Origin: Patescibacteria group bacterium
GTDB taxonomy: Bacteria > Patescibacteriota > Patescibacteriia > XYB2-FULL-38-15
Direction: 5' to 3'
NCBI GenBank assembly: GCA_041653675.1
Contig: JBAZEY010000001.1
Coordinates: 98-64,097 of the forward strand
DNA: 64,000 bases
A program made the position numbers and the translations under genes. This document shows, one piece after another, positions 3,626 to 58,908 of the stretch (positions are counted from its first letter, which is position 1; the number at the start of each line of letters is the position of its first letter). Below the pieces are notes generated by a model. The model had not been told where the DNA came from. It ran no database searches and saw only the letters and a list, made by a program, of their open reading frames with translations.

Positions 3626-3651
3626 TCTCTGAATTCGTTGATATAGAAAAA

Positions 3652-3687
3652 AGCAGGGCGCCCTCTCGGCGCCCTGCTTTGATTTTG
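3652..3687 (+). terminator. Rho-independent terminator (stem agcagggcgcc/ggcgccctgct followed by TTTGATTTT)
   Basis: Perfect 11-bp GC-rich stem with a 5-nt loop and a T-run, immediately after the stop at 3625. Confidence 0.7.
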
Positions 3688-3704
3688 TGGTAAAATAAAA
3701 TTGT

Positions 3705-3763
3705 CCCCGACTAAAGTCGGGACTCCGGCGAACGATTTGGACTCCTCACTTTAGTGAGGGTTG
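3705..3763. repeat. REP-like hairpin pair upstream of the RAYT gene (cccgac-TAAA-gtcggg + gactcc; cctcac-TTTA-gtgagg + gttg)
   Basis: Two 6-bp-stem, 4-nt-loop palindromes with a conserved GACTCC tail; the same units recur at 4311-4450. Confidence 0.7.
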
Positions 3764-3776
3764 AACACAGTAATAT

Positions 3777-4310: not shown

Positions 4311-4450
4311 CCCCGACTAAAGTCGGAACTCCGCAGTCTCTCGGACTCCTCACTTTAGTGAGGGTTGGATCTACCCCGACTAAAGTCGGAACTCCAAATT
4401 TAATAATTTATTTAAAATTAAATTAAGTACCTGTCTAAAGACAGGACTCC
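4311..4450. repeat. Cluster of four REP-like hairpins (two cccgac/gtcgga units, one cctcac/gtgagg unit, one cctgtc/gacagg unit), each with a GACTCC/GAACTCC tail
   Basis: Hairpins at 4311-4332, 4343-4368, 4374-4395 and 4430-4450. All have a 6-bp stem and TAAA/TTTA loop; the last ends 9 nt before the ATG at 4460. Confidence 0.7.
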
Positions 4451-4459
4451 AAAAAACCT

Positions 4460-5128
4460 ATGACCAAAAAATTGAAAATTATTTTGATCGTCGTCGTTTT
4501 TATTTTAATCGCCGGCGGACTTCTCGTCTGGAAAACTTGGAATTGGCAAGGAAAGATGGGGGATTTAAGAAGTTATGTTACTTCCTTATTTTCTGGAGAA
4601 AAAGTAGAAGAATTACCGGCCGATGTTAAAGCGGCCTATGAAGCCTTGAAAAATGATCCGTCAAATACCAGCGCTTATATAAAAATTGCCGCTTGGAAAC
4701 GGGACCAAGGCCAATTGGCGGACGCGATTAAACTTTATGAATCAGCCTTAGAAGTGAAACCAGACGACACTTTGCTTTTAATGAATAGCGCCGAACTTTA
4801 TACGAGAAACGAGCAATATGCCGAGGCCGCGGGAGCGTATGTGAAAGTCATGGAAAGCAACCCGAAGTGGCTTGCCGCCTATCGCAGTTTAGCCGATCTT
4901 TATCGCTACCAAATGCCGGAAAGAAAAATTGAAATTCCGAGCATTTTAAAAAGGGGACTGGAAGCAAATTCGGAAAATGAAATTTATTTTGTCGCGCCGC
5001 TTGCCATTTATTACAAAGATTTCGGACCGGAAGACGAAGCGATTCGCTGGTACGAGCGGCTGCTTGAACTTGAACCCGGAAATCTCACGGCACAGAAAGA
5101 GTTGGAAGAATTAAAAAATAAACAATAA
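4460..5128 (+). CDS. TPR-repeat protein with N-terminal transmembrane anchor
   Basis: N-terminal hydrophobic helix ILIVVVFILIAGGLLVW followed by repeated 34-aa Ala/Tyr/Leu-rich TPR-like units (AYIKIAAWKRDQGQLADAIKLYESALEVKPDD...). Confidence 0.6.
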   Translation: MTKKLKIILIVVVFILIAGGLLVWKTWNWQGKMGDLRSYVTSLFSGEKVEELPADVKAAYEALKNDPSNTSAYIKIAAWKRDQGQLADAIKLYESALEVKPDDTLLLMNSAELYTRNEQYAEAAGAYVKVMESNPKWLAAYRSLADLYRYQMPERKIEIPSILKRGLEANSENEIYFVAPLAIYYKDFGPEDEAIRWYERLLELEPGNLTAQKELEELKNKQ

Positions 5129-5144
5129 ATAACGGTTAAAAATT

Positions 5145-6833: not shown

Positions 6834-7243
6834 GAGATTGTGGATAAGTTTCCTCTTGACCAACTCAGTTTTTCGTGATAAAATAAAAGAAGATTAAATT
6901 AATATGAAGTTAACCGTGCTTGTCGTTTCGCAAACGAGCGAATTAGTTTTAAGTTTCTCTAGGGGGAGAGACTTGTTTAATGCTTAATTTTTAGGCATTT
7001 TTTTGTTGTTTAACTAAGAATTTAACTAATAAATTTAATTAAATATAAACCTTACCCTGCGAGAAATTTATTCTGCGGGGAATAAGCGCTACGGCGCTTG
7101 AAATTCCGTCGCTCGTCCCAAATGTTCCGCCGAGGTGGACCACTTGCGGACTCGCTAGGAATTATAAAAAAGGCGAATTTCGGAATTAATTGCGAATAAT
7201 TTTATTCGCAGTTCTCAATTCTTGGTTCGTCGTTTCAAAAAAT

Positions 7244-10102
7244 ATGGCAGAAAGAATCAAAAAAGGCTTTTTCAAAGTATTGCCATTGTCGGTGGTAGTA
7301 TTTTTAGTGTTAGGCTTGGTGGTGTCCTTCACCATGCCAACTCCTCAAAATCTCGGAGTAGAGCCTGTGAAAGCAGCGGTTAACGGCGGCACTACGTCGG
7401 CTCTCTGGCTATTGGACACAAACGCAACTCCAAACGGAAAAATTGATAGAATCACTTTTAGTGTCCTTAACACGAGCGGAGATGCTTGGGCTTTGAATGT
7501 TGCCTTACCTTACGGGTTAAGCGTAACCCAGGCTGGCAATGCGATAACTATTTCGGCAGTTACTATCACGTCGATCGCCACCGCCAATCCAATTACTGTA
7601 CAAGTTGATTTAGATGAAAGTGACGCAGACTTACTCGTGAATACTGACGGTGTTACCACGGGAGCCATAGAATTAATCTATACTCCAGTCCTCTTCGCAA
7701 ACTGCGGCACAACAGCCAGTATTTGTGATACCGATGAAGAAATGAATGTCATTGCGACCGGCGATACCGGAGCAACTGATACTGAAGTTGATAAAGCCGC
7801 GCCGTATATGACTTCCGCAACTTATGGGGATTCCGACGCGGGTGGCAACGTTGACCGAGTTACTTTTGTCTTTTCCGAATCAACAACCTGGACCGCTATG
7901 ACCGCCGCGGATTGGGCATTCGGAGCTGGCGACATCGCTATAACAGGAGATTTTCTTATTGGTGACTGTACTGCCTCTCCATCTATAACCTATGTCTGTA
8001 CTGATGCGGCTAACGCTCATATTACCTCAACCGCCGATAGAACCGGTAAGCAGACTTTAGCGGGTATTGAACCAACCTTTACTTATACCAATAGCACTAA
8101 CGACATCAATGATGGCGCTGCTGCTAATAACACTGCCACTTTTGGGCCAAACTCCTTGGCTGATGGCGCCGCGCCATATTTCCTCTCTGCTATCTATTCA
8201 GATTCTACCGCTGACGGAAAAGTTGACCGCGTGGCTTTTGCCTTTTCTGAAGTGACGACCTTTAACGCGATTACTGCCGCGGACTGGGCATTTGGCGGAG
8301 GTGACATTGTCCTTAGTGGCGACTTTGCTCTCGCTGAATGCGTGGGTTCAGCCACCCTCACCACCGTTACCTGCACTGACGCTGGCACGGGAACAGTTGA
8401 CGCCACTGCTTCAAGAACCGGCAAACAAACTTTAGCAGGCATTGAACCAACTATTACTTATACTAATGGCACTAATGACATTAGAGATGCCTCCTCCAAT
8501 AATACTGCCACTTTTGGTCCAACATCCTTGGTTGATGGCGCAGCTCCAGTCTTTGTGACCACCTCTCCGGCTGACGGCGCGACAGGCGTGGCCCTGGACG
8601 CGAGTATGGTTATTACTTTCTCCGAGACGATGACCGAGGCCTCTGTTACAGGCGCGATTACCAGAGCTCCAGCATTTACTCTCGGCACGGCATCATGGAA
8701 TGCGGCGAGCATAATTCTTACTTACTCCGCTCACGACGCTTTTGCCGGCATGCAGAACTACATCATCACCTTAGCCGGAACAATCGCCTCAGCGGCCGCA
8801 ACTGACGGAAATCTTGGGACTGGTCCGGTAGCAAATCCTTTTGACTTCACTACGGTCGCGGCTTCTAGCGGCGGAGGAGGCGCTGCAACATTACCCGCGT
8901 CTATCACTGTCACAACTCCGAACGGCGGCGAAATTTTGACCGGAGGAGGAACTTACAGCATCACCTGGTCGGCTGTTAGTAATACCGACCCGGTTAGCAT
9001 TTATTATTCAACTGACAGCGGCATAAATTTCCTGAACACCATAGCTACGGACGAAACGAACGATGGTTCTTACACCTGGACTGTTCCGAACGTTGCCACG
9101 AGCGCGGCCAAGGTTAAAGTAGTGAGCGGCAGTTTGAATGATATTTCTGATTCCAACTTTACTATCACTTACTCTACTTCCGCGGTTTCCACTTCCACCT
9201 CCACAGTTGTTGCTTCCCCGACTTCAGTGACGGCCAACGGAACTTCCAAATCAACTGTCACAGTCACCGTCAAAGACTCGAGTTCTAATCTGCTTTCTGG
9301 TAAAGTCGTGACCCTTGCTTCTTCTCGCGGCACTTCCGATACGGTTACGACCGTGACCGGCACAACCGGCACTAACGGCGTCGCCACTTTTGAAGTCAAA
9401 TCAAGCACGGCTGGCACTTCAACTTACACGGCTACTGCCGCGGGCGTAGTTCTAACTCAAACCGCTTCAGTCTCCTTTGCCGCTCCCGGCACGCCTGGTG
9501 AAACTCCAGTTTCTCTTAGTGTCGGAGACTTGATTAAGAGCAGTCTCAGCTCTTCGGTCTATTACTATGGTTCCGACGGCAAACGCCATGTCTTCCCGAA
9601 TGAAAAGACTTACAAGAGTTGGTATGTGGATTTCACCGGCATCAAAACTATTTCCGCCTCTCAACTCCAGGGCATCACTCTTGGCAAAAATGTCACGGTC
9701 CGTCCCGGCACGGTGCTCGTCAAAATCCAGACTGATCCCAAGGTCTACGCCGTTGAACCAGGCGGGCTCCTTCGCTGGGTTCCGACCGAAGCTCGTGCCA
9801 CCACTCTTTACGGCTCCTCTTGGGCCTCAAAGATCATTGATGTTCCAGTCATCTTCTGGGTTGACTACACCTTTGGCACTGACATTACGACCGACAAACA
9901 TCCGACCGGCGCCTTGGTCCAATATACTGGTTCAACTGAAAAATATTACATCCAGGGCACGGAAAAGCGTTTGATCTCCACTGCCGGCTTCACCGCCAAC
10001 AAATTCCAGTTGTCCAATGTCCTTACTGTCCCAACTACCATTACCTACACAACTGGCACGGCTCTCTCAGCCGAGGAGACAGCGCTATCTAGAATTTACT
10101 AG
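7244..10102 (+). CDS. Giant surface protein paralog. Modules: signal anchor, two tandem ~131-aa DGAAP modules, Big_5-like, compact beta-sandwich (GPI/Kre9-like pattern ITWS...YSTDSG...DGSYTWTVP), Big_1-like, shared C-terminal domain.
   Basis: The ORF track starts at 7190, but the conserved N-terminus MAERIKKGFFKVLPLSVVVFLVLGL, identical in pattern to the 10281 gene, begins at ATG 7244. Domain motifs are read directly from the translation. No SD. Confidence 0.7.
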   Translation: MAERIKKGFFKVLPLSVVVFLVLGLVVSFTMPTPQNLGVEPVKAAVNGGTTSALWLLDTNATPNGKIDRITFSVLNTSGDAWALNVALPYGLSVTQAGNAITISAVTITSIATANPITVQVDLDESDADLLVNTDGVTTGAIELIYTPVLFANCGTTASICDTDEEMNVIATGDTGATDTEVDKAAPYMTSATYGDSDAGGNVDRVTFVFSESTTWTAMTAADWAFGAGDIAITGDFLIGDCTASPSITYVCTDAANAHITSTADRTGKQTLAGIEPTFTYTNSTNDINDGAAANNTATFGPNSLADGAAPYFLSAIYSDSTADGKVDRVAFAFSEVTTFNAITAADWAFGGGDIVLSGDFALAECVGSATLTTVTCTDAGTGTVDATASRTGKQTLAGIEPTITYTNGTNDIRDASSNNTATFGPTSLVDGAAPVFVTTSPADGATGVALDASMVITFSETMTEASVTGAITRAPAFTLGTASWNAASIILTYSAHDAFAGMQNYIITLAGTIASAAATDGNLGTGPVANPFDFTTVAASSGGGGAATLPASITVTTPNGGEILTGGGTYSITWSAVSNTDPVSIYYSTDSGINFLNTIATDETNDGSYTWTVPNVATSAAKVKVVSGSLNDISDSNFTITYSTSAVSTSTSTVVASPTSVTANGTSKSTVTVTVKDSSSNLLSGKVVTLASSRGTSDTVTTVTGTTGTNGVATFEVKSSTAGTSTYTATAAGVVLTQTASVSFAAPGTPGETPVSLSVGDLIKSSLSSSVYYYGSDGKRHVFPNEKTYKSWYVDFTGIKTISASQLQGITLGKNVTVRPGTVLVKIQTDPKVYAVEPGGLLRWVPTEARATTLYGSSWASKIIDVPVIFWVDYTFGTDITTDKHPTGALVQYTGSTEKYYIQGTEKRLISTAGFTANKFQLSNVLTVPTTITYTTGTALSAEETALSRIY
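7778..8566 (+). repeat. Intragenic tandem duplication: two ~393-bp (131-aa) DGAAP modules
   Basis: DKAAPYMTSATYGDSDAGGNVDRVTFVFSE...RTGKQTLAGIEPTFTYTN and DGAAPYFLSAIYSDSTADGKVDRVAFAFSE...RTGKQTLAGIEPTITYTN are near-identical at the aa level. Confidence 0.7.
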
Positions 10103-10122
10103 AACTTAGATAGATTAGAAAA

Positions 10123-23778: not shown

Positions 23779-24060
23779 TTAGTCCTCCACGATGTCAGGC
23801 ATCAGAAGACATGGGTAATGGCCAGGATAGCGTCGGATTTTCCCCCAGCCGGCATTGAGATGAACCGTCACCTCAGAGAAATCATTCTTAACCACGGTAG
23901 CTTTTGCGGTCATGTTGATCAGGCCGCCAAACCAGCAGAAAAGCACAACAGTCACTTGTTGGCCGATAAGTGCCGTACTCAGGGTGGTGATGTGGTCGCA
24001 GCTTTCCTCCCTTCGGTCAGCCAGAATTTTCTCCATTTGGGCTCTCTTTTTGGGCGTCAT
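23779..24060 (-). CDS. Small protein of unknown function, paralog B (93 aa), GC-rich, C-terminus YPCLLMPDIVED
   Basis: ATG at 24060 is preceded by AAAAGGAGG-acag. The protein shares about 30% identity with the adjacent paralog, including M.KIL at the N-terminus, AKATV, and C.LMP..VED at the C-terminus. GC is about 55% versus about 38% in the flanks. Confidence 0.6.
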   Translation of the reverse strand: MTPKKRAQMEKILADRREESCDHITTLSTALIGQQVTVVLFCWFGGLINMTAKATVVKNDFSEVTVHLNAGWGKIRRYPGHYPCLLMPDIVED

Positions 24061-24080
24061 CTGTCCTCCTTTTCGAGCCG

Positions 24081-24371
24081 TCAATCCTCCACAGTCGGCA
24101 TCAGGAAGCATGGGCAATCCAGAGCAAAGCGGCGCGGGTTCGCGGGTTCCTTGAAGAGGCGAAGTAGGATGCCGTCCTCGGGCCGAGACAAGTCGCGCTC
24201 GATTACCGTGGCTTGGGCTGCCTTGAAACGGCGCGGATCCCACCAGGGCGTGGTAATGGCGATAGTCACAAGTCCACCAGGAGGAACAACTCCGAGATCG
24301 GTCAGCCAGTCGCCCTCTTCCATGTGTCTTGTGAGGAGGACGTTCATTTCGTCTTTCAGAATTTTGATCAT
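24081..24371 (-). CDS. Small protein of unknown function, paralog A (96 aa), C-terminus CPCFLMPTVED
   Basis: ATG at 24371 is preceded by AAGGAGG-ggttg. The 97-aa ORF-track start at 24374 is a TTG one codon upstream. Tandem with paralog B; GC-rich. Confidence 0.6.
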   Translation of the reverse strand: MIKILKDEMNVLLTRHMEEGDWLTDLGVVPPGGLVTIAITTPWWDPRRFKAAQATVIERDLSRPEDGILLRLFKEPANPRRFALDCPCFLMPTVED

Positions 24372-24398
24372 CAACCCCTCCTTGTTTGGTGACCTATT

Positions 24399-24427
24399 AT
24401 TTAATCATTGATTTCGTTTTTTGTCAA
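24399..24427 (-). promoter_or_regulatory. Candidate sigma70-type promoter for the two small paralogs (-35 TTGACA, 17-nt spacer, -10 TTAAAT)
   Basis: Minus-strand ttgacaaaaaacgaaatcaatgattaaat, about 25 nt upstream of the SD. Confidence 0.4.
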
Positions 24428-29462: not shown

Positions 29463-30007
29463 AAAAATGGGAAAAATTAAGTGAAGAAATTTTGCACAAA
29501 AATCCGTGGTGGACATACAGGCACGAAAAATATGTATTACCAAACGGCAAAGAAGGAAATTATTATTACATGCACACAAATGGTGGCGCATTAGTGATTC
29601 CGGTTTTAGATGATGGGCGGATTGTTATGGTTAGACAGCGGCATTATCTTTTCAAACGAGAAAGCATAGAGTTTCCCAGGGGTGGAGTGAAAGAAAACCA
29701 ATCTTATGAAGAGGCGGCGCGCGCCGAATTTGAGGAAGAAGCCGGTTACAAGGTCGGCGAACTACGTTTGATTGGGGAGATAGCTCCAAATATTGGGTTA
29801 GATGATGAGATAATGAAAATATTTTTGGCGAAAAAATTGGAGAAGACAAAGAGCCATCCTGACGAGACTGAGGAAATTGAAATTTTATTTAAGACGCCGG
29901 AAGAAATCGATAAAATGGTAGAAACAAATGAAATTTGGGACGGCCAAGTTTTGGCGGCATGGGCCTTGGCAAGAAAATATTTTATAAAGGGCAAAGCCCT
30001 GTGTTGA
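29459..30007 (+). CDS. NUDIX hydrolase (ADP-ribose pyrophosphatase-like)
   Basis: Nudix box GGVKENQSYEEAARAEFEEEAGY; ATGA overlap with the HIT gene. Confidence 0.75.
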   Translation: MKKWEKLSEEILHKNPWWTYRHEKYVLPNGKEGNYYYMHTNGGALVIPVLDDGRIVMVRQRHYLFKRESIEFPRGGVKENQSYEEAARAEFEEEAGYKVGELRLIGEIAPNIGLDDEIMKIFLAKKLEKTKSHPDETEEIEILFKTPEEIDKMVETNEIWDGQVLAAWALARKYFIKGKALC

Positions 30008-30068
30008 CTGCGCTCGTTCGGAAATGAAAATAAAATTTTCGTTTCTCTCACTCGCTTGTCAATAAAAA
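30002..30068. repeat. ~65-bp hairpin-forming intergenic repeat, copy R1
   Basis: tgttgactgcgctcgttcggaaatgaaaataaaattttcgtttctctcactcgcttgtcaataaa. Homologous copies lie at 49756-49819 and 58842-58908. The core stem is gaaatgaaaa/ttttcatttc. Confidence 0.65.
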
Positions 30069-31873: not shown

Positions 31874-32446
31874 ATGGCAGTGATCACGTTGGAGGGGGCC
31901 GTGCGCAGGCTGGACGGCGCATTCGTTTACCTCGAACCAGAGGAGGTGGCGGCGAGAAAACTCTCCGAGGGCAAAGGGGTCGAGCTCTGGTACTTCGATC
32001 CGGCGACCGGACGAATCGCTCGTGGCGATGGCAAGTTCTTCGACATCCGCATGGTGGACCGCGGCGGGTGGGGGCAGATCGTGCTCTACGAGGAGCCGAA
32101 CGTGCCGCAGTCGGCGGATCCCACTATGCCGCGCATCGTGGGCCACGTCGTGATCGAGACGACCCGCAGGTACGGCGCACTGCTCGTACGCGTGCACAAG
32201 GCCACGGGCCTGAACGGCGGGATTCTGGAGCTCAAGCCGTCCAGCATCTCCAAGGGCGAACTGGCCGAGAGAGGTCTCGAGCCTGTCGGCTATTTCGAGG
32301 CCAGTCCCCAGCGCATCATGGGCATGATCGCCGTCTACCTCATGGAGACGGACTTCCCGGAAGAGGAAGGCAGGACTGTGCTCCAGTTCTTCAAGCACTC
32401 CACCGACGGGCGGTCGCTCGCGGCCCTGGCCAAGGCCGGCCTGTAG
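31874..32446 (+). CDS. Hypothetical protein (190 aa) in GC-rich islet 2
   Basis: About 62% GC coding sequence with high-GC third positions. The overlapping 296-aa frame-1 ORF and the 213-aa antisense ORF are Arg-rich artefacts. AGGAAAG precedes the ATG by 9 nt. Confidence 0.5.
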   Translation: MAVITLEGAVRRLDGAFVYLEPEEVAARKLSEGKGVELWYFDPATGRIARGDGKFFDIRMVDRGGWGQIVLYEEPNVPQSADPTMPRIVGHVVIETTRRYGALLVRVHKATGLNGGILELKPSSISKGELAERGLEPVGYFEASPQRIMGMIAVYLMETDFPEEEGRTVLQFFKHSTDGRSLAALAKAGL

Positions 32447-32466
32447 TCGGCTACGGGAGGAATATC

Positions 32467-32685
32467 GTGGCAAGGTTGCACAAGCCCAAGAAGAAGCGCA
32501 GCAAGCTGGAGAGGATCCGGCACGAGAAGTTCGAGATCGCCAAGATCATCTATCGTGCGGAGGCGGGCCGCACTTGTCCCGAGGAGAAGATGAACAAGTT
32601 TCTCGCCCGCTGGCACGCTCTCTGCAACGAGGAGTTGCGCGCCATGGTCGAGGCGTCGAAGGTGCGCAAGGCCGCCGCGGCCTGA
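32467..32685 (+). CDS. Small basic protein (72 aa), GTG start
   Basis: GGGAGG-aatatc-GTG (strong SD, 6-nt spacer). Product VARLHKPKKKRSKLERIRHEKFEIAKIIYRAEAGRTCPEEKMNKFLARWHALCNEELRAMVEASKVRKAAAA. GC-rich. Confidence 0.5.
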   Translation: MARLHKPKKKRSKLERIRHEKFEIAKIIYRAEAGRTCPEEKMNKFLARWHALCNEELRAMVEASKVRKAAAA

Positions 32686-32725
32686 TCTAGACAAGAACAA
32701 GGAGGACAGAAACACACACCGTTTT

Positions 32726-32782
32726 TTGCAGCATCTGCTGCCGAAAGCGGTGTTTTTTTATACACTTTGTGCTATTATAAAA
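32726..32782 (+). terminator. Compound terminator (acacaccgtttttt - inner hairpin gcagcatctgctgc - cggtgttttttt), followed by an extended -10-like TGcTATTAT
   Basis: Outer stem acaccg/cggtgt with T-run. The same acaccgtttt...cggtgtttttt arrangement recurs at 33218-33262. Confidence 0.5.
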
Positions 32783-32824
32783 ATTGGGGAAAAGCCAGCG
32801 CATTGGCTGGTGAAGGAGGAGAAG

Positions 32825-33211
32825 ATGGAAGAACAAGGAGTGACTAAGCATGTTCCCGATCGAGCAGTCGTGAGTCTCGTAAATCGGATCCTTCTGCGGG
32901 CGATTGAGCTCAAGGCGGATGAGATCTACGTCGGACCCGACGAAGAAGGAATCGCGGCCAGCGAATTTGCTATTAGCTATTTGGTCAACGGCAAACTGTA
33001 TTCGCGGGAGGCGATGATGAGGTCGACGTGTGTGAATATCATCGCCCACTTCAAAGAGCTGGGCAGGCTCAATCACGCGAAACGGGACACGCGGCAGGAG
33101 GGTGATTTCCTGACGAAGGGCGAGGGTCGGGAATGGATTTTCCGTATCACTGTCGAACCGGCACCGCCGTTCGGTGAGAAGGTGATCGCCAAGCTCGTTC
33201 GGCGTTCCTAG
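32825..33211 (+). CDS. N-terminal (N2) domain fragment of a PilB/GspE/PilT-class secretion ATPase, stand-alone or truncated; no Walker A/ATPase core
   Basis: VVSLVNRILLRAIELKADEIYVGPDEE...ISYLVNGKLYSRE...REWIFRITVEPAPPFGEKVIAKLV matches the start of the T2SSE ATPase family (vklvn.il..Ai...ASDIHiEp...vRyRiDG.L...dlRVstlPt.yGEkvVlRlL). SD AAGGAGGA lies 5 nt before ATG 32825. The ORF stops about 15 residues before where Walker A would be. Confidence 0.55.
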   Translation: MEEQGVTKHVPDRAVVSLVNRILLRAIELKADEIYVGPDEEGIAASEFAISYLVNGKLYSREAMMRSTCVNIIAHFKELGRLNHAKRDTRQEGDFLTKGEGREWIFRITVEPAPPFGEKVIAKLVRRS

Positions 33212-39053: not shown

Positions 39054-39323
39054 TTAAGCAAAAGTGTTTTGGTAGTGAGCGGCGGTTTTAGCGCTCGCCT
39101 GAATTGTGCGAGTACAATCTGGTTCATGCGCCCCGCATTTGGCGCAAAGATACCAATCACAAGACCGGCAGGTAGAGGAAAACCTCCCATCGATTGGTTC
39201 GCCGCAATTCCAACAATGGGTGATTTCCCATTCGCTGCCGCAAGCGGAACAGGACATGGTGTTCCGAAGCAGCCCCTCGCCGCGAAGGGCTCTCTCGCCG
39301 CAATAGCACAGATCTTGATCCAT
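39054..39323 (-). CDS. Small Cys-rich protein (89 aa; CxC + 4 CxxC pairs), putative multi-zinc-ribbon protein
   Basis: MDQDLCYCGERALRGEGLLRNTMSCSACGSEWEITHCWNCGEPIDGRFSSTCRSCDWYLCAKCGAHEPDC. GC about 52% versus about 38% background. ORF-track start 39347 is a GTG; ATG 39323 is preferred. Confidence 0.4.
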   Translation of the reverse strand: MDQDLCYCGERALRGEGLLRNTMSCSACGSEWEITHCWNCGEPIDGRFSSTCRSCDWYLCAKCGAHEPDCTRTIQASAKTAAHYQNTFA

Positions 39324-39432
39324 ATGTTTAATCTTTAAATTTCCCACCTTCTATTATATGTTTTTTTTATTACGAAAAGATGAAGATGGCTATTTTTTTC
39401 TTTTTAAGTTTTTTGTTATAATATACTGATAT

Positions 39433-48760: not shown

Positions 48761-48810
48761 CAAGGACAGAATTTTTTAAACCCTTCCTCCTCGGGAGGGT
48801 TTTCTGTCCT
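48761..48810. terminator. Bidirectional nested-hairpin terminator (aaggacagaa ... cctcc tcg ggagg ... ttctgtcctt)
   Basis: 10-bp outer stem enclosing a GC inner hairpin, between convergent murG and the GGDEF gene. Confidence 0.6.
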
Positions 48811-48819
48811 TGATGCGTA

Positions 48820-49467
48820 CTATCGCTTGTCGGCGACCACACAGTTGCGTCCCGCGCATTTGGCCTCGTAAAGCGCCCTGTCGGCCTCTTCGAGTCCTTC
48901 TTTGGTTTTTGCCTCAGTCACGCCGAGACTGATCGTCACCGAGAAAGTCGATTTGCCGAAGGAAAAGGGCACTGCCGCCACAGCCTTGCGGAGCCGTTCG
49001 GCGACCAAAGCCGCGTTCTCTGGAGTTGCTCCCCGGAGAATGATGACGAATTCGTCCCCACCCATTCGTCCGATCACGTCATACGGGCGAAGAGCTGTGC
49101 GGAAACGTCTGATGATCTCCTTTAGGATCTCATCTCCGGCCGGGTGTCCGTATGTGTCGTTGATTCCCTTGAAGATGTCGACGTCAATTGCGATCACGCT
49201 AAGTGGTGAAGTGAAGCGTTTGGAGAAAGCGAGCTCATTTACAACTGCTAACTCGACTCCGGCGCGATTCAGCGCACCGGTCAAGGGATCGACCCTAGCC
49301 AATTCTTGCAGTTCGTCATTCTTGGCGGTGAGCCTCACAATTTCTGCCCCGAGAGCCCTGATCCGCGTTTCGCTGTCTGCCCGCTCCTCGTAGGCCGCCG
49401 CGAGCGCGATCCGTAGTTGTCGCACGGGAAGATCTCGCACCTTCTTGGAAACCCGCCTTTTTGCCAT
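48820..49467 (-). CDS. Stand-alone GGDEF-domain diguanylate cyclase with N-terminal coiled-coil segment
   Basis: RMGGDEFVIIL active-site motif with conserved upstream DxD (AIDVDIFKGINDTYGHPAGDEIL). GC about 57%. Strong SD GAAGGAGG-tttc-ATG. Confidence 0.75.
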   Translation of the reverse strand: MAKRRVSKKVRDLPVRQLRIALAAAYEERADSETRIRALGAEIVRLTAKNDELQELARVDPLTGALNRAGVELAVVNELAFSKRFTSPLSVIAIDVDIFKGINDTYGHPAGDEILKEIIRRFRTALRPYDVIGRMGGDEFVIILRGATPENAALVAERLRKAVAAVPFSFGKSTFSVTISLGVTEAKTKEGLEEADRALYEAKCAGRNCVVADKR

Positions 49468-49562
49468 GGAAACCTCCTTCTGTGATCCGGAGAGTTGTTA
49501 TCTATCGCGACCTTAGATTTTATGTTAAAACGTCAATTTTGTCAAGACTGAAAAATATAACA

Positions 49563-49588
49563 AAAAACCTTCGTTTGAAGGTTTTTAT
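49563..49588. terminator. Bidirectional terminator (aaccttc gtttg aaggtt with flanking A/T runs)
   Basis: Perfect 7-bp stem; A6 before, T5 after. Confidence 0.55.
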
Positions 49589-49602
49589 AAAACTATAGAA
49601 AT

Positions 49603-49625
49603 AAAAAATGACCCGGCTGGGGCTC
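49603..49625. repeat. Direct repeat of the tRNA-Lys 3' end plus flank (aaaaaatgacccggctggggctc)
   Basis: Identical 23-mer at 49813-49835, which overlaps the 3' acceptor/T-arm of tRNA-Lys; the two copies are 210 bp apart. Confidence 0.65.
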
Positions 49626-49755
49626 TCACTGCTCGTTCGCTTTTGCTCTCTGCGCTTTAAAACCCATCGGTTTTAATATTTCCGCAAATCAGGAAACTCC
49701 CGTTTCCCGACCCCTTCCCTATTCGAGCCCAGCCAAAAATTAGCAAATACTGCGT

Positions 49756-49819
49756 GTTATCATCGCTCGTTCGGAAATGAAATAAATTTCATTTCTCTCG
49801 CTCGCTTGATAATAAAAAA
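49756..49819. repeat. ~65-bp hairpin repeat, copy R2
   Basis: tgttatcatcgctcgttcggaaatgaaataaatttcatttctctcgctcgcttgataataaaaaat. It abuts the 3' end of tRNA-Lys and lies inside the 210-bp segment bounded by the tRNA-derived direct repeats. Confidence 0.6.
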
Positions 49820-49892
49820 TGACCCGGCTGGGGCTCGAACCCAGGACCCTCTGCTTAAAAGGCAGATGCTCTACCAGCTGAGCTACCGGGTC
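49820..49892 (-). tRNA. tRNA-Lys (anticodon UUU)
   Basis: Minus-strand GACCCGGUAGCUCAGCUGGUAGAGCAUCUGCCUUUUAAGCAGAGGGUCCUGGGUUCGAGCCCCAGCCGGGUCA. 7-bp acceptor, D/anticodon/T arms and T-loop UUCGAGC all form; 73 nt. Confidence 0.9.
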
Positions 49893-49993
49893 ATAATCAA
49901 ATTTTAAAAAAAGAACGAGGAAGTCGTTAATAGCCGTTTTAGTCTTAATTTGATATAATAATACCAAGGCATTTTATTTTTGGCAAGGGTTTT

Positions 49994-51136
49994 ATGAAAA
50001 TTGCCATGATCGGCCAAAAGGGCATCCCATTTATTCGGGACGGGGGAGTAGAGCGCCACGTGGAAGAACTATCAATTCGGCTTGTCGCGGGGGGCCACGA
50101 GGTTTACGCTTATGTTCGACCCCGGTTTATTATAAATGGTCAAAAAAATTATAAGGGCGTCCAGCTGATTTCCCTTCCCTCAATTCCCACGAAGAACCTG
50201 GATACCATTACCCATACTTTTTTGGCGACAATAAATGTTCTTTTCAAAAAAGTTGATGTTATTCATTATCACGGCGTCGGTCCATCAACCTTGGCCTGGA
50301 TCCCCAGAATTTTTAAACCGCGCGCGAAAATTGTCGTGACATTTCATAGTATTGATCGATTTCATAAAAAATGGGGACAGTTCGCCAGATTTTATCTTAG
50401 CTGGGGTGAGTGGACAGCGGTTCACTTCGCGCATAAAACTATCGCCGTCTCAGAATCCATAAAAAAATATTGTAAAGATAAATTTAAAAAAGACGTAGTT
50501 TATATACCGAATGGTGTTATGGCAGAAAAAATTAGCGGGACGGAAGAAATAAAAAAATTAGGTTTAGAAAAAAATTCTTATATTTTAACGGTGGCGCGGC
50601 TTATCAAACACAAGGGGATTCATTATTTAATTCAGGCTTATCGTAAAATAGAGAAAACTTTTGGCGATGATCCAAAAAATTGGCCCGGTGGAAAAATAAA
50701 AAAATTGGTGATTGTTGGGGCGCCGAGTTTTACGGACGATTACTCCGCTTATTTGAATAAACTTGCCGAGCAAAGTCCAAATATTATTTTTACCGGATTT
50801 CAAACGGGCGAACCCTTAAAACAACTTTTTGCAAACACCTATCTTTATGTTCACCCTTCTGAAGCCGAGGGACTTTCCATTACAATTTTGGAGGCAATGT
50901 CTTACGGAACATGCGTTTTAATCAGCAACATCCCGGAAAATTTAGAAACAATTGACCATTCGGGATTTTCTTTTGAGACAAAAAATATTGATGATCTTTA
51001 TGAAAAATTAATTTATCTTCTTAACGTTCCGGAAATTGTAACGGTGCGGGGTGAGCGAGGAAAAGAATTTATTAAGAAAAATTTTAATTGGGAGAAAATT
51101 GTCGAGGAAACGGAAAGGGTTTATAAAATTAAATAA
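49994..51136 (+). CDS. Family 4 glycosyltransferase (GT-B)
   Basis: EAEGLSITILEAMSYGTCVLISNIPEN motif; preceded by a TATAAT-like gatataat. Confidence 0.7.
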   Translation: MKIAMIGQKGIPFIRDGGVERHVEELSIRLVAGGHEVYAYVRPRFIINGQKNYKGVQLISLPSIPTKNLDTITHTFLATINVLFKKVDVIHYHGVGPSTLAWIPRIFKPRAKIVVTFHSIDRFHKKWGQFARFYLSWGEWTAVHFAHKTIAVSESIKKYCKDKFKKDVVYIPNGVMAEKISGTEEIKKLGLEKNSYILTVARLIKHKGIHYLIQAYRKIEKTFGDDPKNWPGGKIKKLVIVGAPSFTDDYSAYLNKLAEQSPNIIFTGFQTGEPLKQLFANTYLYVHPSEAEGLSITILEAMSYGTCVLISNIPENLETIDHSGFSFETKNIDDLYEKLIYLLNVPEIVTVRGERGKEFIKKNFNWEKIVEETERVYKIK

Positions 51137-51154
51137 AGATTTTAAAAAATATTT

Positions 51155-52264
51155 ATGCACAATTCGTTTTCGCTCGGAAGAATAAAAAACATAGAAATAA
51201 AAATACACTTTTCCTGGTTTTTAATTTTATTCTTGATTGTTTGGTCGCTGGCTGATTTTTATTTCCCCGCAAACTATCCTGGCTGGACAGATACCGCCTA
51301 TTGGCTCTCCGGCGGAGTGGCAGCATTTTTACTTTTTGTATCGGTATTGCTACACGAACTTTCCCATTCGCTAGTGGGCAAAAGAAAAAATATTATTGTT
51401 AAGAGCATAACTTTGTTTGTTTTTGGCGGCGTGGCAGAAATGGTGAGCGAACCTAAAAAACCAGCCGACGAATTTGATATGGCGATCGCCGGACCGGTTG
51501 CGAGCGTTGTTTTAGCCGGTATTTTTTGGGGCATCGCGAGTTTTGAAATCGGCATCGCTGGCGCAGCCATTGCTAATTACCTTTTTTTGATCAATGGTAT
51601 TTTAGCAGTTTTTAATTTAGTACCCGCGTTCCCCTTGGATGGAGGGAGAGTTTTTCGTTCAGCGCTTTGGGCAAAATATAAAGACATCGAACGAGCCACT
51701 CGTCGGGCGGTAGGCGTAAGCCGTTTCATCGCTTTTCTCTTTACTCTTTGGGGGATAAAAATGCTTCTTGAAAATAATTTTTTGAGCGGGATTTGGATAA
51801 TTTTGATTAGTTGGTTTTTACTCCAGGCGGCCGGATCAAGTTTAAGGCAGCAGAGGATGGAAGAGGTGCTTTCGCGTTTCAATATTGGGCATATCATGGA
51901 AAAAGATTTTAAGAGTGTTACGTCCGATACATTGCTTAAAGATTTAGCTAAAGCATTTCTGGATTATAAACAAGGAGGTTTTCCCGTTGAGGAAAACGAT
52001 CACTTAATTGGTATTGTTACGATTGAAGATTTGAGGCGAACGCCTCGGACAAAGTGGTCGAAAATTAAAGTGGGGGAAATAATGACTGGAGCGGAAAAAC
52101 TTTTAACGCTTCGGCCGGACGACACGGCCTACGATGCCTTCTTGAAAATGGCTAGTAACGAGTTTGGCCGTTTGCCGGTTGTGGAAAACAATAAAGTGGT
52201 TGGGCTCGTGACCAGAAATTCTATTATTTTACTTTTGGCCGTGAAGTGTGATAAATGCGTTTAA
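51155..52264 (+). CDS. M50-family site-2-protease-like zinc metalloprotease with C-terminal CBS domain pair
   Basis: HELSHSLV (HExxH) in a TM helix, a second ligand motif in PLDGGRV, then two CBS repeats (HLIGIVTIEDL; VVGLVTRNSI). Confidence 0.75.
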   Translation: MHNSFSLGRIKNIEIKIHFSWFLILFLIVWSLADFYFPANYPGWTDTAYWLSGGVAAFLLFVSVLLHELSHSLVGKRKNIIVKSITLFVFGGVAEMVSEPKKPADEFDMAIAGPVASVVLAGIFWGIASFEIGIAGAAIANYLFLINGILAVFNLVPAFPLDGGRVFRSALWAKYKDIERATRRAVGVSRFIAFLFTLWGIKMLLENNFLSGIWIILISWFLLQAAGSSLRQQRMEEVLSRFNIGHIMEKDFKSVTSDTLLKDLAKAFLDYKQGGFPVEENDHLIGIVTIEDLRRTPRTKWSKIKVGEIMTGAEKLLTLRPDDTAYDAFLKMASNEFGRLPVVENNKVVGLVTRNSIILLLAVKCDKCV

Positions 52265-52278
52265 AATTTAAAATAAAT

Positions 52279-52851
52279 ATGACTAATCAAAAATTATTTC
52301 AACAGTTAAAAAAAGATTTTGAATTTTACGGAGAAGAAAGAAGAAAGTTAATCGGTGTTTCTAATGAAGCACTGATGAGGGCGAAGCAGGCGATTTTTGC
52401 TTTTCACAGAGATGACTTAAAAGGTGGCAACGCGCTGCTCGCCGAAGTGGAAAAGATTTTTCAAGATTTGGAAAAGAAATTTAAACAAGAGCCGGAGTTG
52501 CGCTACGAAGGAGCGTATCATGCGGCGCTTGAAGAATACGTGGAAGCAAAATTTTTTGGAAGATTTTTGGAAGATGGGAAAATAGATTTTATAAAAGGGA
52601 TGGAAATTGACGCCGATAGTTACCTGGGTGGTCTCTGCGATTTTACCGGGGAACTTGTTCGAAAGGCAGTTCTCGCGGCTACGGATAAAAAATTTAAAAA
52701 AGTTGAAGAGTTTGTGGCCGGCGTCCGCGATGTTATCGGAGAATTAATTAAAATGAATTTGACCGGGTATTTGCGGACAAAGTATGATCAGGCCAAACAG
52801 AATTTACGGCGGGCGGAGGAAGTTTTGTATGATGTAAAAATGAGGGAGTAA
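52279..52851 (+). CDS. Hypothetical all-alpha protein (about 190 aa)
   Basis: ORF overlaps the end of the M50 gene. The internal ATG at 52279 (MTNQKL) is preferred over the track start 52255. No confident family assignment. Confidence 0.35.
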   Translation: MTNQKLFQQLKKDFEFYGEERRKLIGVSNEALMRAKQAIFAFHRDDLKGGNALLAEVEKIFQDLEKKFKQEPELRYEGAYHAALEEYVEAKFFGRFLEDGKIDFIKGMEIDADSYLGGLCDFTGELVRKAVLAATDKKFKKVEEFVAGVRDVIGELIKMNLTGYLRTKYDQAKQNLRRAEEVLYDVKMRE

Positions 52852-52874
52852 AAGTATAAAGAGATTCTAAACAT

Positions 52875-53288
52875 ATGCCGAAAGAAGTTTCCGCCGGCGC
52901 CGTAATTTTTAGGCGAGACGGCGAAATAAAATATTTGCTTTTGCGTTATGAATCCGGACATTGGGATTTTCCCCGAGGAGCGATTGAGCTCGGGGAAAAA
53001 GAAGAAGAAACGGTCGTGCGCGAAGCAAAAGAAGAAACAGGAATTGCTGATCTGATTTTTCTCCCCAATTTTAGGGAGAAAATTTTTTGGTTTTATAAAA
53101 AGGAGGGGAGAACAATTTATAAAGAAGCGATTTTTTATTTAGCTGAGACAAAAACTCGTGAAGTAAAACTTTCCGATGAGCATATTGATTTTAGGTGGTT
53201 GCCTTACGCGGAGGCGATGGAACAAATTACTTTTCTAAATGGAAAAAAGGTTTTAGAGAAAGCAAATGAGTTTTTGTTAAAATTATAA
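52875..53288 (+). CDS. NUDIX hydrolase
   Basis: Nudix box GAIELGEKEEETVVREAKEETGI. Confidence 0.75.
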   Translation: MPKEVSAGAVIFRRDGEIKYLLLRYESGHWDFPRGAIELGEKEEETVVREAKEETGIADLIFLPNFREKIFWFYKKEGRTIYKEAIFYLAETKTREVKLSDEHIDFRWLPYAEAMEQITFLNGKKVLEKANEFLLKL

Positions 53289-53291
53289 ATT

Positions 53292-53429
53292 ATGCCCCGT
53301 AGTGAAATTTCGACGGCGCCTTTCGGCGCAGCGTTAAAAGACGACAGAGGACGTTGGAGTTTGCTATGTGGTATAAACCGAGCAACTGACTCGGATATTT
53401 AATAAGTCGAAATTCTACTACGGGGTATG
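53292..53429 (+). promoter_or_regulatory. Structured 5' leader element, copy B (~138 nt), starting ATGCCCCGTAGTGAAA and ending CTACGGGGTATG, the ATG being the start of the downstream membrane-protein gene
   Basis: Ends pair as CCCCGUAGU + AAUUUCGAC / GUCGAAAUU + ACUACGGGG. Relative to copy A the stem carries compensatory changes (AACUUC/GAAGUU versus AAUUUCGAC/GUCGAAAUU). An internal extended -10-like TGgTATAAA lies at 53369. Confidence 0.55.
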
Positions 53430-53930
53430 TTTGGAATAAATTACGCCGAAATATTTAAAAGTTTTCCTCCCGAGGCGGCAACAGCCTTAATTGCCATGAT
53501 CCCGATCGCTGAACTGCGCGTGGCAATGCCGGTTGCGCTTTTAGTTTATAAAATGTCTTTTTGGTCGGCGATGCTTTGGTCGGTACTCGGAAATATGCTG
53601 CCGATTTTTTTGATTGTTTTTCTTCTGCGCCCGGCCGCGGATTTTTTAATGAAGCATTGGGGGCTGGCGAAAAGATTTTTTGATTGGTGGTTTACTCGCG
53701 TGCGCAAAAAATTTGAGGGAGGAATTTTAAAATATGGAATAAATTTGGCGCTTGTAGTTTTTGTTGCGATTCCTCTGCCTTTGACCGGCGCCTGGTCCGG
53801 AGCCGTGGCTGCATATCTATTTGGCATTCCGCCGCGGCGCGCCTTGATTTTAATCACGATTGGCGTTATAATAGCGGGAATTATTGTTGGGTTAATAACT
53901 GGCGGTGGCATTTATTTATTTAAAACATGA
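53427..53930 (+). CDS. Small polytopic membrane protein, COG2426 / putative small multidrug-export-like family
   Basis: IPIAELRVAMPVALLVYKMSFWSAMLWSVLGNMLPIFLIVFLL pattern of the Sm_multidrug_ex-like family; 4 TM. Confidence 0.45.
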   Translation: MFGINYAEIFKSFPPEAATALIAMIPIAELRVAMPVALLVYKMSFWSAMLWSVLGNMLPIFLIVFLLRPAADFLMKHWGLAKRFFDWWFTRVRKKFEGGILKYGINLALVVFVAIPLPLTGAWSGAVAAYLFGIPPRRALILITIGVIIAGIIVGLITGGGIYLFKT

Positions 53931-55267
53931 TTAATTTTCGCGATAAAAAAATAACCGTAATGGGGCTTGGCCTTTTGGGTCGGGGAGTTGGTGTTGTAAA
54001 ATTTTTAGTTGGAAAAGGCGCGAAGGTGACCGTGACGGATTTAAAGAGCGCAAAAGATTTAGCGCCGTCAGTTCATGAAATAAAAAAGTTTTTAAAGAAT
54101 AGAAAAGGTGCGTATCCGGTAAAATTTATTTTAGGCAAACATCGGTTAGAAGATTTTCGTGGTGTTGACATGGTTTTTAAAGCCGCGGGCGTGCCGCTGG
54201 ATTCAGTGTATATAGCAGAGGCGAAAAAAAATGGCGTGCCGGTTTTTATGGATGATGCGTTATTCGGCCGCGAGGCAGAGTGCAAAATAATTGGCATTAC
54301 CGGAACACGCGGGAAAACAACGACTTCAAGTTTAATTTATGAAATTGCTAGGGCAACTGATAAAAAAACATATTTTGGCGGAAACGTCCGGGGAATGGCC
54401 ACACTTCCGTTTTTGGAAAAAGTTAAAAAAAATGACCTTGTGGTTTTGGAACTTTCAAGCTGGCAACTTCAGGGCTGGCGAGATTTAAAAATCAGTCCGC
54501 AAATTTCCGTTGTGACAAATATCTATCCCGACCATCAGAATTATTATAAAAACAGCATGGCAAAATATATTCACGACAAAGAAGCGATTTTTGCCAATCA
54601 GAAAAAAAATGATTTTTTGGTTTTGAATAAAAATTGCGCGTGGTGTCAAAAAATGGTAAGGCGAGCTCCGGGAAAAATAATTTGGTTTTCCGCAAACGAT
54701 GTTCCTCGTGGATGGAATTTAAAAATTTTAGGTGAGCATAATTTAGAAAATATTTCTGCGGCCATGGCTGTCGGAAAAATTTTAGGATTACCCATGGCGC
54801 GGATTAAAAAAGCCGTGGAAAATTTTCGCGGTGTGCCTGGCCGATTGGAATTTGTGCGCGAAGTTCATGGTGTGAAATATTATAATGATACGACATCAAC
54901 TATGCCCGAAGCGACGATTGCGGCGCTTCGCGCTCTCCGTGGAAAAAATATTATTTTGATCGCCGGTGGCGCGGACAAGAATTTGAATTTTAAAAATTTG
55001 GCGCCAGCGATTAAAAAATATACAAAAGCCGTTGTGCTTTTGTCCGGCACCGCGACACAAAAAATGCAGCAACAATTACGCGTTGTAAATTACAAGTTAC
55101 CGGTCACTCTTACGAAGAGTATGTCCGAAGCCGTTAAGACGGCGCGGAAATTCGCCACGCGCGGCGATGTAATTTTACTTTCTCCGGCCGCCGCGAGTTT
55201 CGGAATGTTTAAAAATGAGTTTGACAGGGGGGATCAATTTTTGAAGGAAGTGGAAAAATTAGCTTAA
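53927..55267 (+). CDS. murD: UDP-N-acetylmuramoylalanine--D-glutamate ligase
   Basis: N-terminal Rossmann VMGLGLLGRGVGVVKFL, Mur ligase P-loop IGITGTRGKTTTSS, and MurD-like C-domain. Confidence 0.75.
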   Translation: MINFRDKKITVMGLGLLGRGVGVVKFLVGKGAKVTVTDLKSAKDLAPSVHEIKKFLKNRKGAYPVKFILGKHRLEDFRGVDMVFKAAGVPLDSVYIAEAKKNGVPVFMDDALFGREAECKIIGITGTRGKTTTSSLIYEIARATDKKTYFGGNVRGMATLPFLEKVKKNDLVVLELSSWQLQGWRDLKISPQISVVTNIYPDHQNYYKNSMAKYIHDKEAIFANQKKNDFLVLNKNCAWCQKMVRRAPGKIIWFSANDVPRGWNLKILGEHNLENISAAMAVGKILGLPMARIKKAVENFRGVPGRLEFVREVHGVKYYNDTTSTMPEATIAALRALRGKNIILIAGGADKNLNFKNLAPAIKKYTKAVVLLSGTATQKMQQQLRVVNYKLPVTLTKSMSEAVKTARKFATRGDVILLSPAAASFGMFKNEFDRGDQFLKEVEKLA

Positions 55268-58841: not shown

Positions 58842-58908
58842 TGTTGACTGCGCTCGCTCGGAAGTGAAAATAAAATTTTCATTTCTCTCGCTCGCTTGTC
58901 AATAAATT
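58842..58908. repeat. ~65-bp hairpin repeat, copy R3
   Basis: tgttgactgcgctcgctcggaagtgaaaataaaattttcatttctctcgctcgcttgtcaataaatttt; follows a small GC hairpin (ggggcattaagcccc) at the murE stop. Confidence 0.65.

Follow-up and report, generated by a model that had tools for sequence, protein, structure and literature searches.

A GC-rich diguanylate cyclase cassette between murG and tRNA-Lys in a Patescibacteria clade, probably long resident and exchanged as divergent alleles

The window analyzed here, i.e., the whole stretch of DNA under study, comprises 64,000 nt of contig JBAZEY010000001.1 from a Patescibacteria group bacterium (GenBank assembly GCA_041653675.1). Between murG and a tRNA-Lys gene, its minus strand carries a coding sequence (48820..49467) for a 215-residue diguanylate cyclase composed of a stalk and a GGDEF domain, as assigned from the open reading frame (ORF) list, Pfam, AlphaFold2 (AF2), and Foldseek. 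A first-pass annotation had described an intact, stand-alone GGDEF gene of this length and strand with the active site RMGGDEF, and this description is confirmed by a Pfam match to GGDEF (PF00990; E 6.6e-39, residues 57–208) that scores 133.7 bits against a cut-off of 23.8 and covers profile positions 1–160 of 161. The gene is monocistronic and enclosed by terminators, and the unit is referred to below as the cassette. An ORF antisense to it (48902–49393, plus strand) was set aside as a by-product of the high guanine-plus-cytosine (GC) content.

All elements of a canonical cyclase are found in the protein. The A-site GGDEF occupies residues 136–140 within RMGGDEF, and the I-site RPYD (residues 127–130) lies five residues upstream (RPYD-VIGRM-GGDEF). 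The metal- and substrate-binding residues D95, D97, K100, and N103 are all present; neither these nor H108, G111, R134, K203, and R207 vary among 46 homologues, and all of them can be aligned with those of the solved cyclase 4zmm. Among 12 alleles, D95, D97, K100, N103, G136, G137, E139, R127, and D130 are invariant. In the window protein, Asp112 occupies the position that determines GTP specificity and that, in other enzymes, decides between GTP and ATP. An AF2 model of the monomer, built on the 46-sequence alignment, reached a mean predicted local distance difference test score of 95.8 and shows one helix (residues 15–57; 43 residues) continuing into the GGDEF fold. No sensor domain is present in the 215 residues. 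In a sequence search of solved structures, Dcsbis (4zmm) was the best match (E 3.9e-32), followed by PleD, WspR, DgcR, and others, and the top Foldseek matches were SiaD (7e6g), Dcsbis, PleD, GCN4-WspR (3i5c), and DgcB (6ttr). The root-mean-square deviation from the GGDEF domains of Dcsbis and PleD is 1.3–1.8 Å. Judged by these features, the predicted enzyme is an ordinary, though minimal, diguanylate cyclase, i.e., a known enzyme with a known architecture (stalk plus GGDEF). With PADLOC defence models, no family was matched at E 0.01 or better, and membership in a defence system was rejected.

The mechanism is most likely that of the family. The long N-terminal helix would form a parallel coiled-coil stalk that pairs two GGDEF domains, whereupon two GTP would be condensed to cyclic dimeric guanosine monophosphate (c-di-GMP), and the conserved RxxD site would confer feedback inhibition by the product. 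Because the protein lacks a sensor domain, its output would be set mainly by transcription and by translation dependent on the Shine-Dalgarno (SD) sequence, possibly also by a stalk-binding partner.

The expression signals of the cassette are compact. A sigma-70-like promoter, TTGACA-17-TAAAAT (49517..49545, minus strand, reading 49545->49517), matches the consensus at 11 of 12 positions and was absent from the first-pass description. Directly downstream of its -10 box, the 5' leader starts with AAGGTCGCGATAGA (49501..49514, minus strand), a sequence that is unique in the window at 0 mismatches and kept across divergent alleles. The leaders of all alleles begin AAGGTCGCGA, and cTTGACAAAAT is conserved upstream of every allele. 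AAGGTCGCGATAGA may be an operator or a transcription-start region. The leader is 50 nt long and contains the SD sequence GAAGGAGG (49473..49480, minus strand), which, as read from the sequence, is separated by 5 nt, not 4 as stated in the first-pass annotation, from the ATG at 49467. An SD-sequestering hairpin or riboswitch in the leader was tried and rejected, as RNAalifold on 13 leaders gave 0 conserved pairs. An Rfam search of the leader returned no match; further upstream and on the opposite strand (49530–49562), a match of 21 bits is at chance level.

Terminators on both sides of the gene (48761 and 49563) had been proposed, and both are recognizable as hairpins with T-runs. The nested hairpin at 48761..48812 combines an outer stem, AAGGACAGAA/TTCTGTCCTT, with an inner stem, CCCTTCC..GGGAGGG. 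Its minus-strand fold has an energy of -28.2 kcal/mol (z = -5.1), with U8 after it, and its inner hairpin and T-run can also be read as a plus-strand terminator for the convergent murG. It is thus a predicted bidirectional intrinsic terminator shared by murG and the GGDEF gene. The outer stem is kept in 10 of the 12 listed loci, with a different 3' flank in L004 and L026 (L-numbers denote loci from relatives). The second terminator, with a 10-bp stem and a T-run (49563..49586, minus strand, reading 49586->49563), lies between tRNA-Lys and the GGDEF promoter and comes directly after tRNA-Lys in relatives; it is predicted to insulate the cassette from tRNA read-through.

The first-pass annotation also held that the composition and translation signal of this gene are unlike those of the host genome, and comparisons within the window agree. 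The ORF has a GC content of 0.571, matching the approximately 57% first given, and a GC content at third codon positions (GC3) of 0.639, versus 0.29–0.45 and ~0.40, respectively, for the neighbouring genes; the other ORFs of the window (~60) lie mostly at 0.36–0.45. When 59 ORF starts were scored by matching their 20 upstream nucleotides to a generic anti-SD tail, which may not be that of the host, the GGDEF gene had the strongest match at -12.9 kcal/mol (median, -1.5). Only four genuine starts reached -11 kcal/mol or better, namely those of the GGDEF gene, two small ORFs at 23779–24371, and one at 32825. Every one of them lies in a GC-rich islet, so strong SD sequences and high GC coincide among the genes of the window.

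The upstream neighbour of the cassette is tRNA-Lys(UUU) (49819..49893, minus strand; ARAGORN; Rfam 73.2 bits), which is found at the same place in all close relatives and forms one boundary of the variable segment. As had been reported, this tRNA gene carries a direct repeat of its 3' end. The repeat is a perfect 26-mer consisting of 18 nt of the tRNA-Lys 3' end and 8 nt of trailer, with one copy at 49811–49836 and a distal copy at 49600..49625, and its number of matches was reached in 0 of 100 shuffles. The two copies, however, bracket a separate insert of 185 nt of non-coding DNA (49626–49810), and the GGDEF gene lies outside. A third tRNA-end repeat that would bracket the gene was sought in the window at up to 3 mismatches, and none was found. 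Pfam scans of the window yielded no integrase or recombinase, and the only transposase gene is of the IS200 type and lies 45 kb away (3777–4310). Thus, neither the repeats nor the enzyme content of the window points to integration of the GGDEF gene at the tRNA, as the first-pass annotation had suggested.

The insert itself is composite. Its first part is a non-coding element of ~124 nt (49626..49749, minus strand) that, among the relatives, has 91–95% identity with L009 (~8021–8119) and L111 (1–93) only, even though the genomes concerned have saturated synonymous sites. The L009 copy is also bracketed by the tRNA 3'-end repeat, and the element, present in only 3 of 13 cases with the window included, is missing from the other relatives and from L116, a contig 99.9% identical to the window. 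Because it is located before the tRNA terminator, it is predicted to be co-transcribed with tRNA-Lys, and it may be a miniature integrative element or a small RNA. The second part, next to the tRNA, is a palindromic intergenic repeat of ~60 nt (TTGACTGCGCTCGYTCGGAARTGAAAATAAAATTTTCRTTTCTCTCRCTCGCTTGTCAA; 61-nt copy at 49750..49810, minus strand) with further copies in the window at ~29996–30060 and 58843–58905. In relatives, it is found between GT4 and M50 (L002/L005) or between murG and the terminator (L023/L029), and it behaves like a small mobile element similar to miniature inverted-repeat transposable elements (MITEs) or repetitive extragenic palindromic (REP) sequences. The 185-nt insert was rejected as a known RNA for lack of an Rfam match, and its strong fold (z = -5.35) is attributable to the palindromic repeats and to pairing with the tRNA copy. 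The GGDEF cassette is present with or without the tRNA-repeat insert, which resembles a small att-flanked element and is independent of the cassette. A second MITE-like element, with terminal inverted repeats AATTCTACTACGGGGT / CCCCGTAGTAGAATT, was observed in the window at 53294–53426 (a copy of ~130 bp between the NUDIX and Sm_multidrug_ex genes) and 15439–15454; in L001, a further copy is inserted upstream of the GGDEF promoter, after the terminator of tRNA-Lys.

A protein search recovered an identical protein in a Patescibacteria metagenome-assembled genome (MAG) and eight full-length relatives of 203–226 residues with 51–83% identity; all other matches were limited to the catalytic domain. 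Relatives were gathered from the contexts of these proteins and from loci fetched with a MurG probe in genomes and metagenomes; a search for exact matches to the MurG of the window gave no result. In all 13 close relatives spanning the position, a homologous GGDEF gene occupies the slot between murG and tRNA-Lys on the opposite strand, and the flanking proteins are 70–96% identical to those of the window. The order MraY-FtsW-MurG, GGDEF, tRNA-Lys, GT4-M50/CBS-translin is the same in L001, L002, L004, L008, L009, L021, L026, and L029, and the shorter loci L005, L023, L025, and L111 follow it as far as they are covered. One relative is labelled Ca. Falkowbacteria. Five other loci (L006, L012, L014, L015, and L019) bear the title "uncultured Gammaproteobacteria bacterium"; judged by gene content and similarity, they belong with Patescibacteria, and the labels look wrong. 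In L026, an extra SD-led ORF of 67 residues (5164–5367, minus strand) lies between the GGDEF gene and murG; it looks like a ribbon-helix-helix protein by eye and is missing from the other alleles.

Beyond this clade, the slot differs. Relatives with a MurG identity of 62% or less have no GGDEF or tRNA-Lys gene after murG (~1–6 kb downstream where the contig extends), a pattern that would fit acquisition by the ancestor of the clade, and the cassette is probably clade-specific. In a sister lineage (L030; MurG 64% and GT4 79% identical to those of the window), the murG/tRNA-Lys slot is filled by a gene for a 119-residue stand-alone receiver (REC, CheY-like) protein (689–1048, minus strand), and no GGDEF gene is found there. 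This REC gene has a GC content of 0.55, is SD-led, and is preceded by a similar TTGACA promoter. Its product is 30–45% identical to the REC domains of the closest REC-GGDEF matches, which is generic similarity only, and a WspR-like ancestor that split into this REC protein and the stalk-GGDEF protein is accordingly not claimed.

The position is fixed, and the gene that occupies it is highly variable. The GGDEF proteins are 39–83% identical to one another, versus 70–96% for the flanking proteins, and form at least three lineages: A (window, L001, L002, L004, and L005), B (L008, L021, L023, L025, L026, and L029), and L009, which stands alone. Between A and B, identity is 33% in the stalk and 49% in the catalytic domain, the stalk thus being the more variable part, and several group-B alleles contain 7 or 21 additional stalk residues. 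The ratio of nonsynonymous to synonymous divergence (dN/dS) between alleles is 0.16–0.5; therefore, the gene is under purifying selection and functional. Groups A, B, and L009 have in common the N-terminal motif QL(R/W)xALAAAYxALAxDE and the C-terminal motif GRNRVV..KR. Outside matches lack both motifs and align only from about residue 33–56 onward. A common origin of the alleles is argued mainly from the shared N-terminal motif, leader, promoter, and terminator.

The products of the alleles may also differ. Hypr-GGDEF enzymes carry Ser in place of the Asp that specifies guanine (D344 in PleD numbering), and Ser at the position of Asp112 is presumably a mark of enzymes of this kind that make cyclic GMP-AMP (cGAMP). 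The window protein has Asp at this position, and Ser is found only in the L009 allele (7160–7840, minus strand), where Ser also stands in place of Asp104.

Pairwise comparisons show how the alleles are distributed. L002 and L005 are 99.6–100% identical in the nucleotide sequence of their flanks, with 100% amino acid identity in GT4, M50, and translin; their cassettes, in contrast, differ over ~650 bp with only ~66% identity, and the GGDEF proteins are 64% identical. The divergent segment starts within the coding sequence, ~45 nt from its 3' end, and extends as far as the -10 box. Similarly, L004 and L026 have flanks with a synonymous divergence (dS) of 0.25–0.41 and a nonsynonymous divergence (dN) of 0.01–0.02, versus a dS of 2.0, a dN of 0.53, and 44% amino acid identity for their GGDEF alleles, which belong to different groups. 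The third case involves the window itself. L116 is 99.9% identical to window positions 49807–55136, lacks the 211-bp insertion, and beyond tRNA-Lys carries a different cassette, which matches that of L021 at 97.7% identity; between the flanks of L021 and L116, the identity is only 87%. The assembly of L116 (1–345; contig k141_120180, ERZ27247358, from another sample) breaks inside the GGDEF gene, as strain-level polymorphism at the locus would cause. Finally, the MurG of the window is closest to that of L029 (85%), and their GGDEF proteins are ~49% identical. Assembly chimeras are an unlikely source of these patterns because the same pattern was seen in independent assemblies from different samples. 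Breakpoints in the promoter and coding sequence fit homologous recombination between conserved flanks. Divergent alleles are thereby moved between genomes, anchored on one side by the tRNA, terminator, and promoter and on the other by the C-terminal codons, terminator, and murG. Thus, the horizontal movement proposed in the first-pass annotation has a counterpart here in that the gene does move, although the movement seen is allele exchange by recombination among sister lineages.

The unusual composition and translation signal persist across this divergence. All alleles have a GC content of 0.57–0.61, compared with 0.39–0.46 for the rest of each locus, and in 12 alleles GC3 is 0.64–0.73 versus 0.33–0.47 in the flanking genes, except for the L025 flanks, which reach 0.58. 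Between relatives, dS is ~0.7–1.5 in MraY, FtsW, MurG, and GT4, and between GGDEF alleles, it ranges from 0.7 to >2. The GC3 offset of about +0.27 has survived at least 1 substitution per synonymous site; it is therefore maintained, and does not represent one old import in the course of fading. Likewise, an AGGAGG-type SD is present in 13 of 13 alleles, whose leaders cannot be aligned in the middle; its retention under these circumstances, without a conserved sequestering hairpin, argues that the SD is used. These observations suggest that high GC and a strong SD belong stably to the cassette, having lasted while divergence reached saturation, and are not the residue of a recent import. The best-supported causes would be selection favouring SD-dependent translation, together with either GC-biased gene conversion or selection on the frequently recombining segment. 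Across bacteria, recombination is positively linked to GC3, an association attributed to biased gene conversion (PMC4450053), and the frequent recombination at this locus fits that documented link.

Taken together, the evidence makes it probable that the locus holds a self-contained minimal-cyclase cassette that has long been resident at one slot in a Patescibacteria clade, whose divergent alleles are exchanged by homologous recombination, and whose GC content and SD are stable and not signs of recent import. Several points weigh against this interpretation. That the protein is an active, product-inhibited cyclase that dimerises via its N-terminal helix is read from family and fold, so activity and dimerisation enter the interpretation as predictions. 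The proposed signal has no visible recipient nearby: as for the effectors that the first-pass annotation had proposed to look for, Pfam scans of the ~60 window ORFs and precomputed Pfam lists for genes ~8 kb beyond the right end contained no PilZ, EAL, HD-GYP, or MshEN domain, and Rfam found no c-di-GMP riboswitch in the window; contigs retrieved for the left end reached no further than the window. A fragment of a T2SSE gene at 32726–33211 encodes the ATPase core, not the MshEN domain. The use of a strong SD is part of the interpretation, and no more than 48% of Parcubacteria were reported to have a recognizable anti-SD motif (PMC9297842). As for why GC is high, biased gene conversion is one candidate, and selection on codons or mRNA or repeated import from a GC-rich gene pool that has escaped sampling are others. 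Lastly, allele monophyly is supported only moderately, as the catalytic-domain scores between A and B are barely above those with unrelated REC-GGDEF proteins.

The REC gene of L030 and the SD-led ORFs of the other window islets make "GC-rich and SD-led" look like a gene class in these genomes. Conceivably, though this is rather unlikely, the GC-rich, strong-SD genes (the GGDEF cassette, the sister-lineage REC gene, and the small ORFs of the other islets) constitute a separate translational class read only under particular ribosome states, with the cyclase as a balanced, frequently exchanged polymorphism in conflict or in host or partner recognition. The stalk or the nucleotide product would then be involved in that role, one allele having the Ser that is presumably a mark of cGAMP synthesis, and the high GC would either result from constant recombination or be needed for the translational mode.

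It is less likely still that the slot is a generic expression socket into which groups A, B, and L009 were captured independently as GC-rich signalling genes. The L030 REC gene, GC-rich, SD-led, and behind a similar TTGACA promoter in the same slot, is what such a socket might hold, small genes that are likewise GC-rich and SD-led are found in other parts of the window, and the catalytic-domain similarity between A and B (49%) is about that to outside REC-GGDEF proteins. Independent captures are, however, hard to reconcile with the N- and C-terminal motifs that A, B, and L009 have in common and that outside matches lack, or with the leader, promoter, and terminator common to the alleles.

The proposal made in the first-pass annotation, acquisition from a higher-GC donor, can be taken as a recent integration at the tRNA-Lys 3' end with GC and SD not yet ameliorated. 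In this form, it is already largely refuted and appears quite improbable. In its favour are the contrast in GC3 (0.64 versus ~0.40 in the host), the uniquely strong SD, the adjoining tRNA with its perfect 26-nt 3'-end repeat, the absence of such a gene beside murG in the available DNA of relatives with a MurG identity of 62% or less, and the boundary between window and L116, which coincides with the tRNA 3' end. Nevertheless, a recent compositional island should be absent from close relatives or host-like in them, and the gene was found in 13 of 13, with the same family, slot, GC3 (0.64–0.73), and SD, despite saturated synonymous sites. It clusters with the orthologues of these relatives and matches their composition, the very outcome that the first-pass annotation had named as refuting its proposal. 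An ancestral import, for its part, should have ameliorated. The tRNA repeat encloses only the 185-nt non-coding insert, which is missing in most relatives; no integrase accompanies it in the window Pfam scans, with the IS200-type transposase 45 kb away; and the L002/L005 breakpoints in promoter and coding sequence fit homologous, not site-specific, recombination. No full-length relatives were found outside the clade or in viral contigs. In IMG/VR, there were only domain-level GGDEF matches of at most 43% identity, none of them full length, and carriage by phage was rejected on this ground. A search for the donor lineage, as had been proposed, identified no outside donor: the nearest non-family matches have at most 50% identity and cover the catalytic domain only, and named ones (Oxalicibacterium and Pseudomonas) have 41–43% identity over the domain.

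Least likely of all is purely vertical descent of a fast-evolving, weakly constrained gene that diverged by drift without transfer. In its favour, the slot is the same in every clade member, dN/dS is below 1, and the flanks are themselves old (dS ~1). Against it, alleles of 41–64% identity with sharp breakpoints are found in three pairs whose flanks are near-identical or closely related, the cassettes of L116 and L021 are 97.7% identical next to flanks at 87%, and the allele groups do not follow flank similarity (L029: MurG 85%, GGDEF ~49%).

Other parts of the window contain further unusual genes. Islet 1 (23779–24411, minus strand) consists of two paralogous GC-rich ORFs, 24081–24371 (96 residues) and 23779–24060 (93 residues), which both end in C.(F/L)LMP..VED and each have a strong SD. 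A promoter-like site, TTGACA-17-TAAATAAT, lies upstream, neither Pfam nor PADLOC gave a match, and the same arrangement is found in the only other contig recovered. Islet 2 (31874–33211, plus strand) begins with an ORF of 190 residues (65% GC, GC3 0.85, no Pfam match). The GC-rich, SD-led fragment that comes next aligns with only the first third of a T2SSE (PilB/GspE-type) ATPase and looks truncated. Between the genes for an S41 peptidase and ribosomal protein L9, a Cys-rich ORF of 97 residues (39054–39347, minus strand; GC 0.51) contains several CxxC pairs and has no Pfam match; in L002, a different gene for a 127-residue protein adjoins L9. Positions 1–17674 form a block of ~50% GC that encodes giant Ig-like surface proteins (Big_1, Big_5, and invasin D3; 562–1177 residues), an S8 subtilase with FG-GAP repeats, and the IS200/Y1 transposase (3777–4310).

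Diguanylate cyclase genes have been reported in MAGs of ultra-small groundwater bacteria (PMC9938205). That a second-messenger synthase is kept in the same place throughout a Patescibacteria clade is an argument for the importance of c-di-GMP, or of a related dinucleotide, to these cells, which are reduced and probably depend on hosts. Divergent, swapped alleles are a pattern normal for surface and conflict genes, not for signalling enzymes. The persistence of GC3 and SD further indicates that compositional islands are not automatically recent foreign DNA. The locus thus offers a place to study SD-dependent translation in SD-poor bacteria and to ask whether biased gene conversion shapes GC at the scale of genes in genomes of the candidate phyla radiation (CPR).

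Among known cyclases, the best structural match is SiaD of Pseudomonas aeruginosa (7e6g), with a Foldseek E of 1.7e-19 and a template modelling (TM) score of 0.74 over 205 columns including the helix. In SiaD, and by prediction in the window protein, a long stalk helix leads into a canonical GGDEF domain. Unlike SiaD, which is adjoined by the SiaABC partner-switch genes, the cassette is flanked by no such genes (its neighbours being murG, tRNA-Lys, GT4, and M50-CBS), and the identity is 33%. SiaD is activated by SiaC, and a stalk-binding partner is a possibility for the window protein. A coiled coil fused directly to GGDEF, as predicted for the window protein, is found in DgcB of Caulobacter crescentus (6ttr; TM 0.77) and in GCN4-WspR (3i5c), which also have the I-site and are 27–35% identical. 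Each of these is either a piece of a larger protein or a fusion made by engineering, whereas here the unit is a whole natural protein of 215 residues. Closest by sequence are Dcsbis (PA2771; 4zmm/4zmu; E 3.9e-32, 41% identity over the domain) and enzymes of the PleD/WspR type, with the same A-site and I-site; they carry GAF or REC sensors, and the window protein carries none.

As a locus, the cassette can be compared with two kinds of variable region. It resembles tRNA-integrated islands and cis-mobilisable att-flanked remnants in its tRNA 3'-end repeat and the patchy distribution of the ~124-nt element. Unlike in such islands, the repeat excludes the GGDEF gene, there is no integrase, and the cassette is present with or without the insert. 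It can also be compared with capsule, O-antigen, and pilin loci, which are hypervariable and exchanged by homologous recombination between conserved flanks. With these, the locus shares a fixed position, conserved flanks, divergent alleles, sharp breakpoints, and discordance between allele and genome trees. Immune or phage selection acts on the surface structures that they encode, whereas the cargo of the cassette is a cytoplasmic signalling enzyme. What is unusual is not the enzyme but the behaviour of the locus, i.e., a resident, clade-wide, hypervariable cassette with a maintained composition and translation signal.

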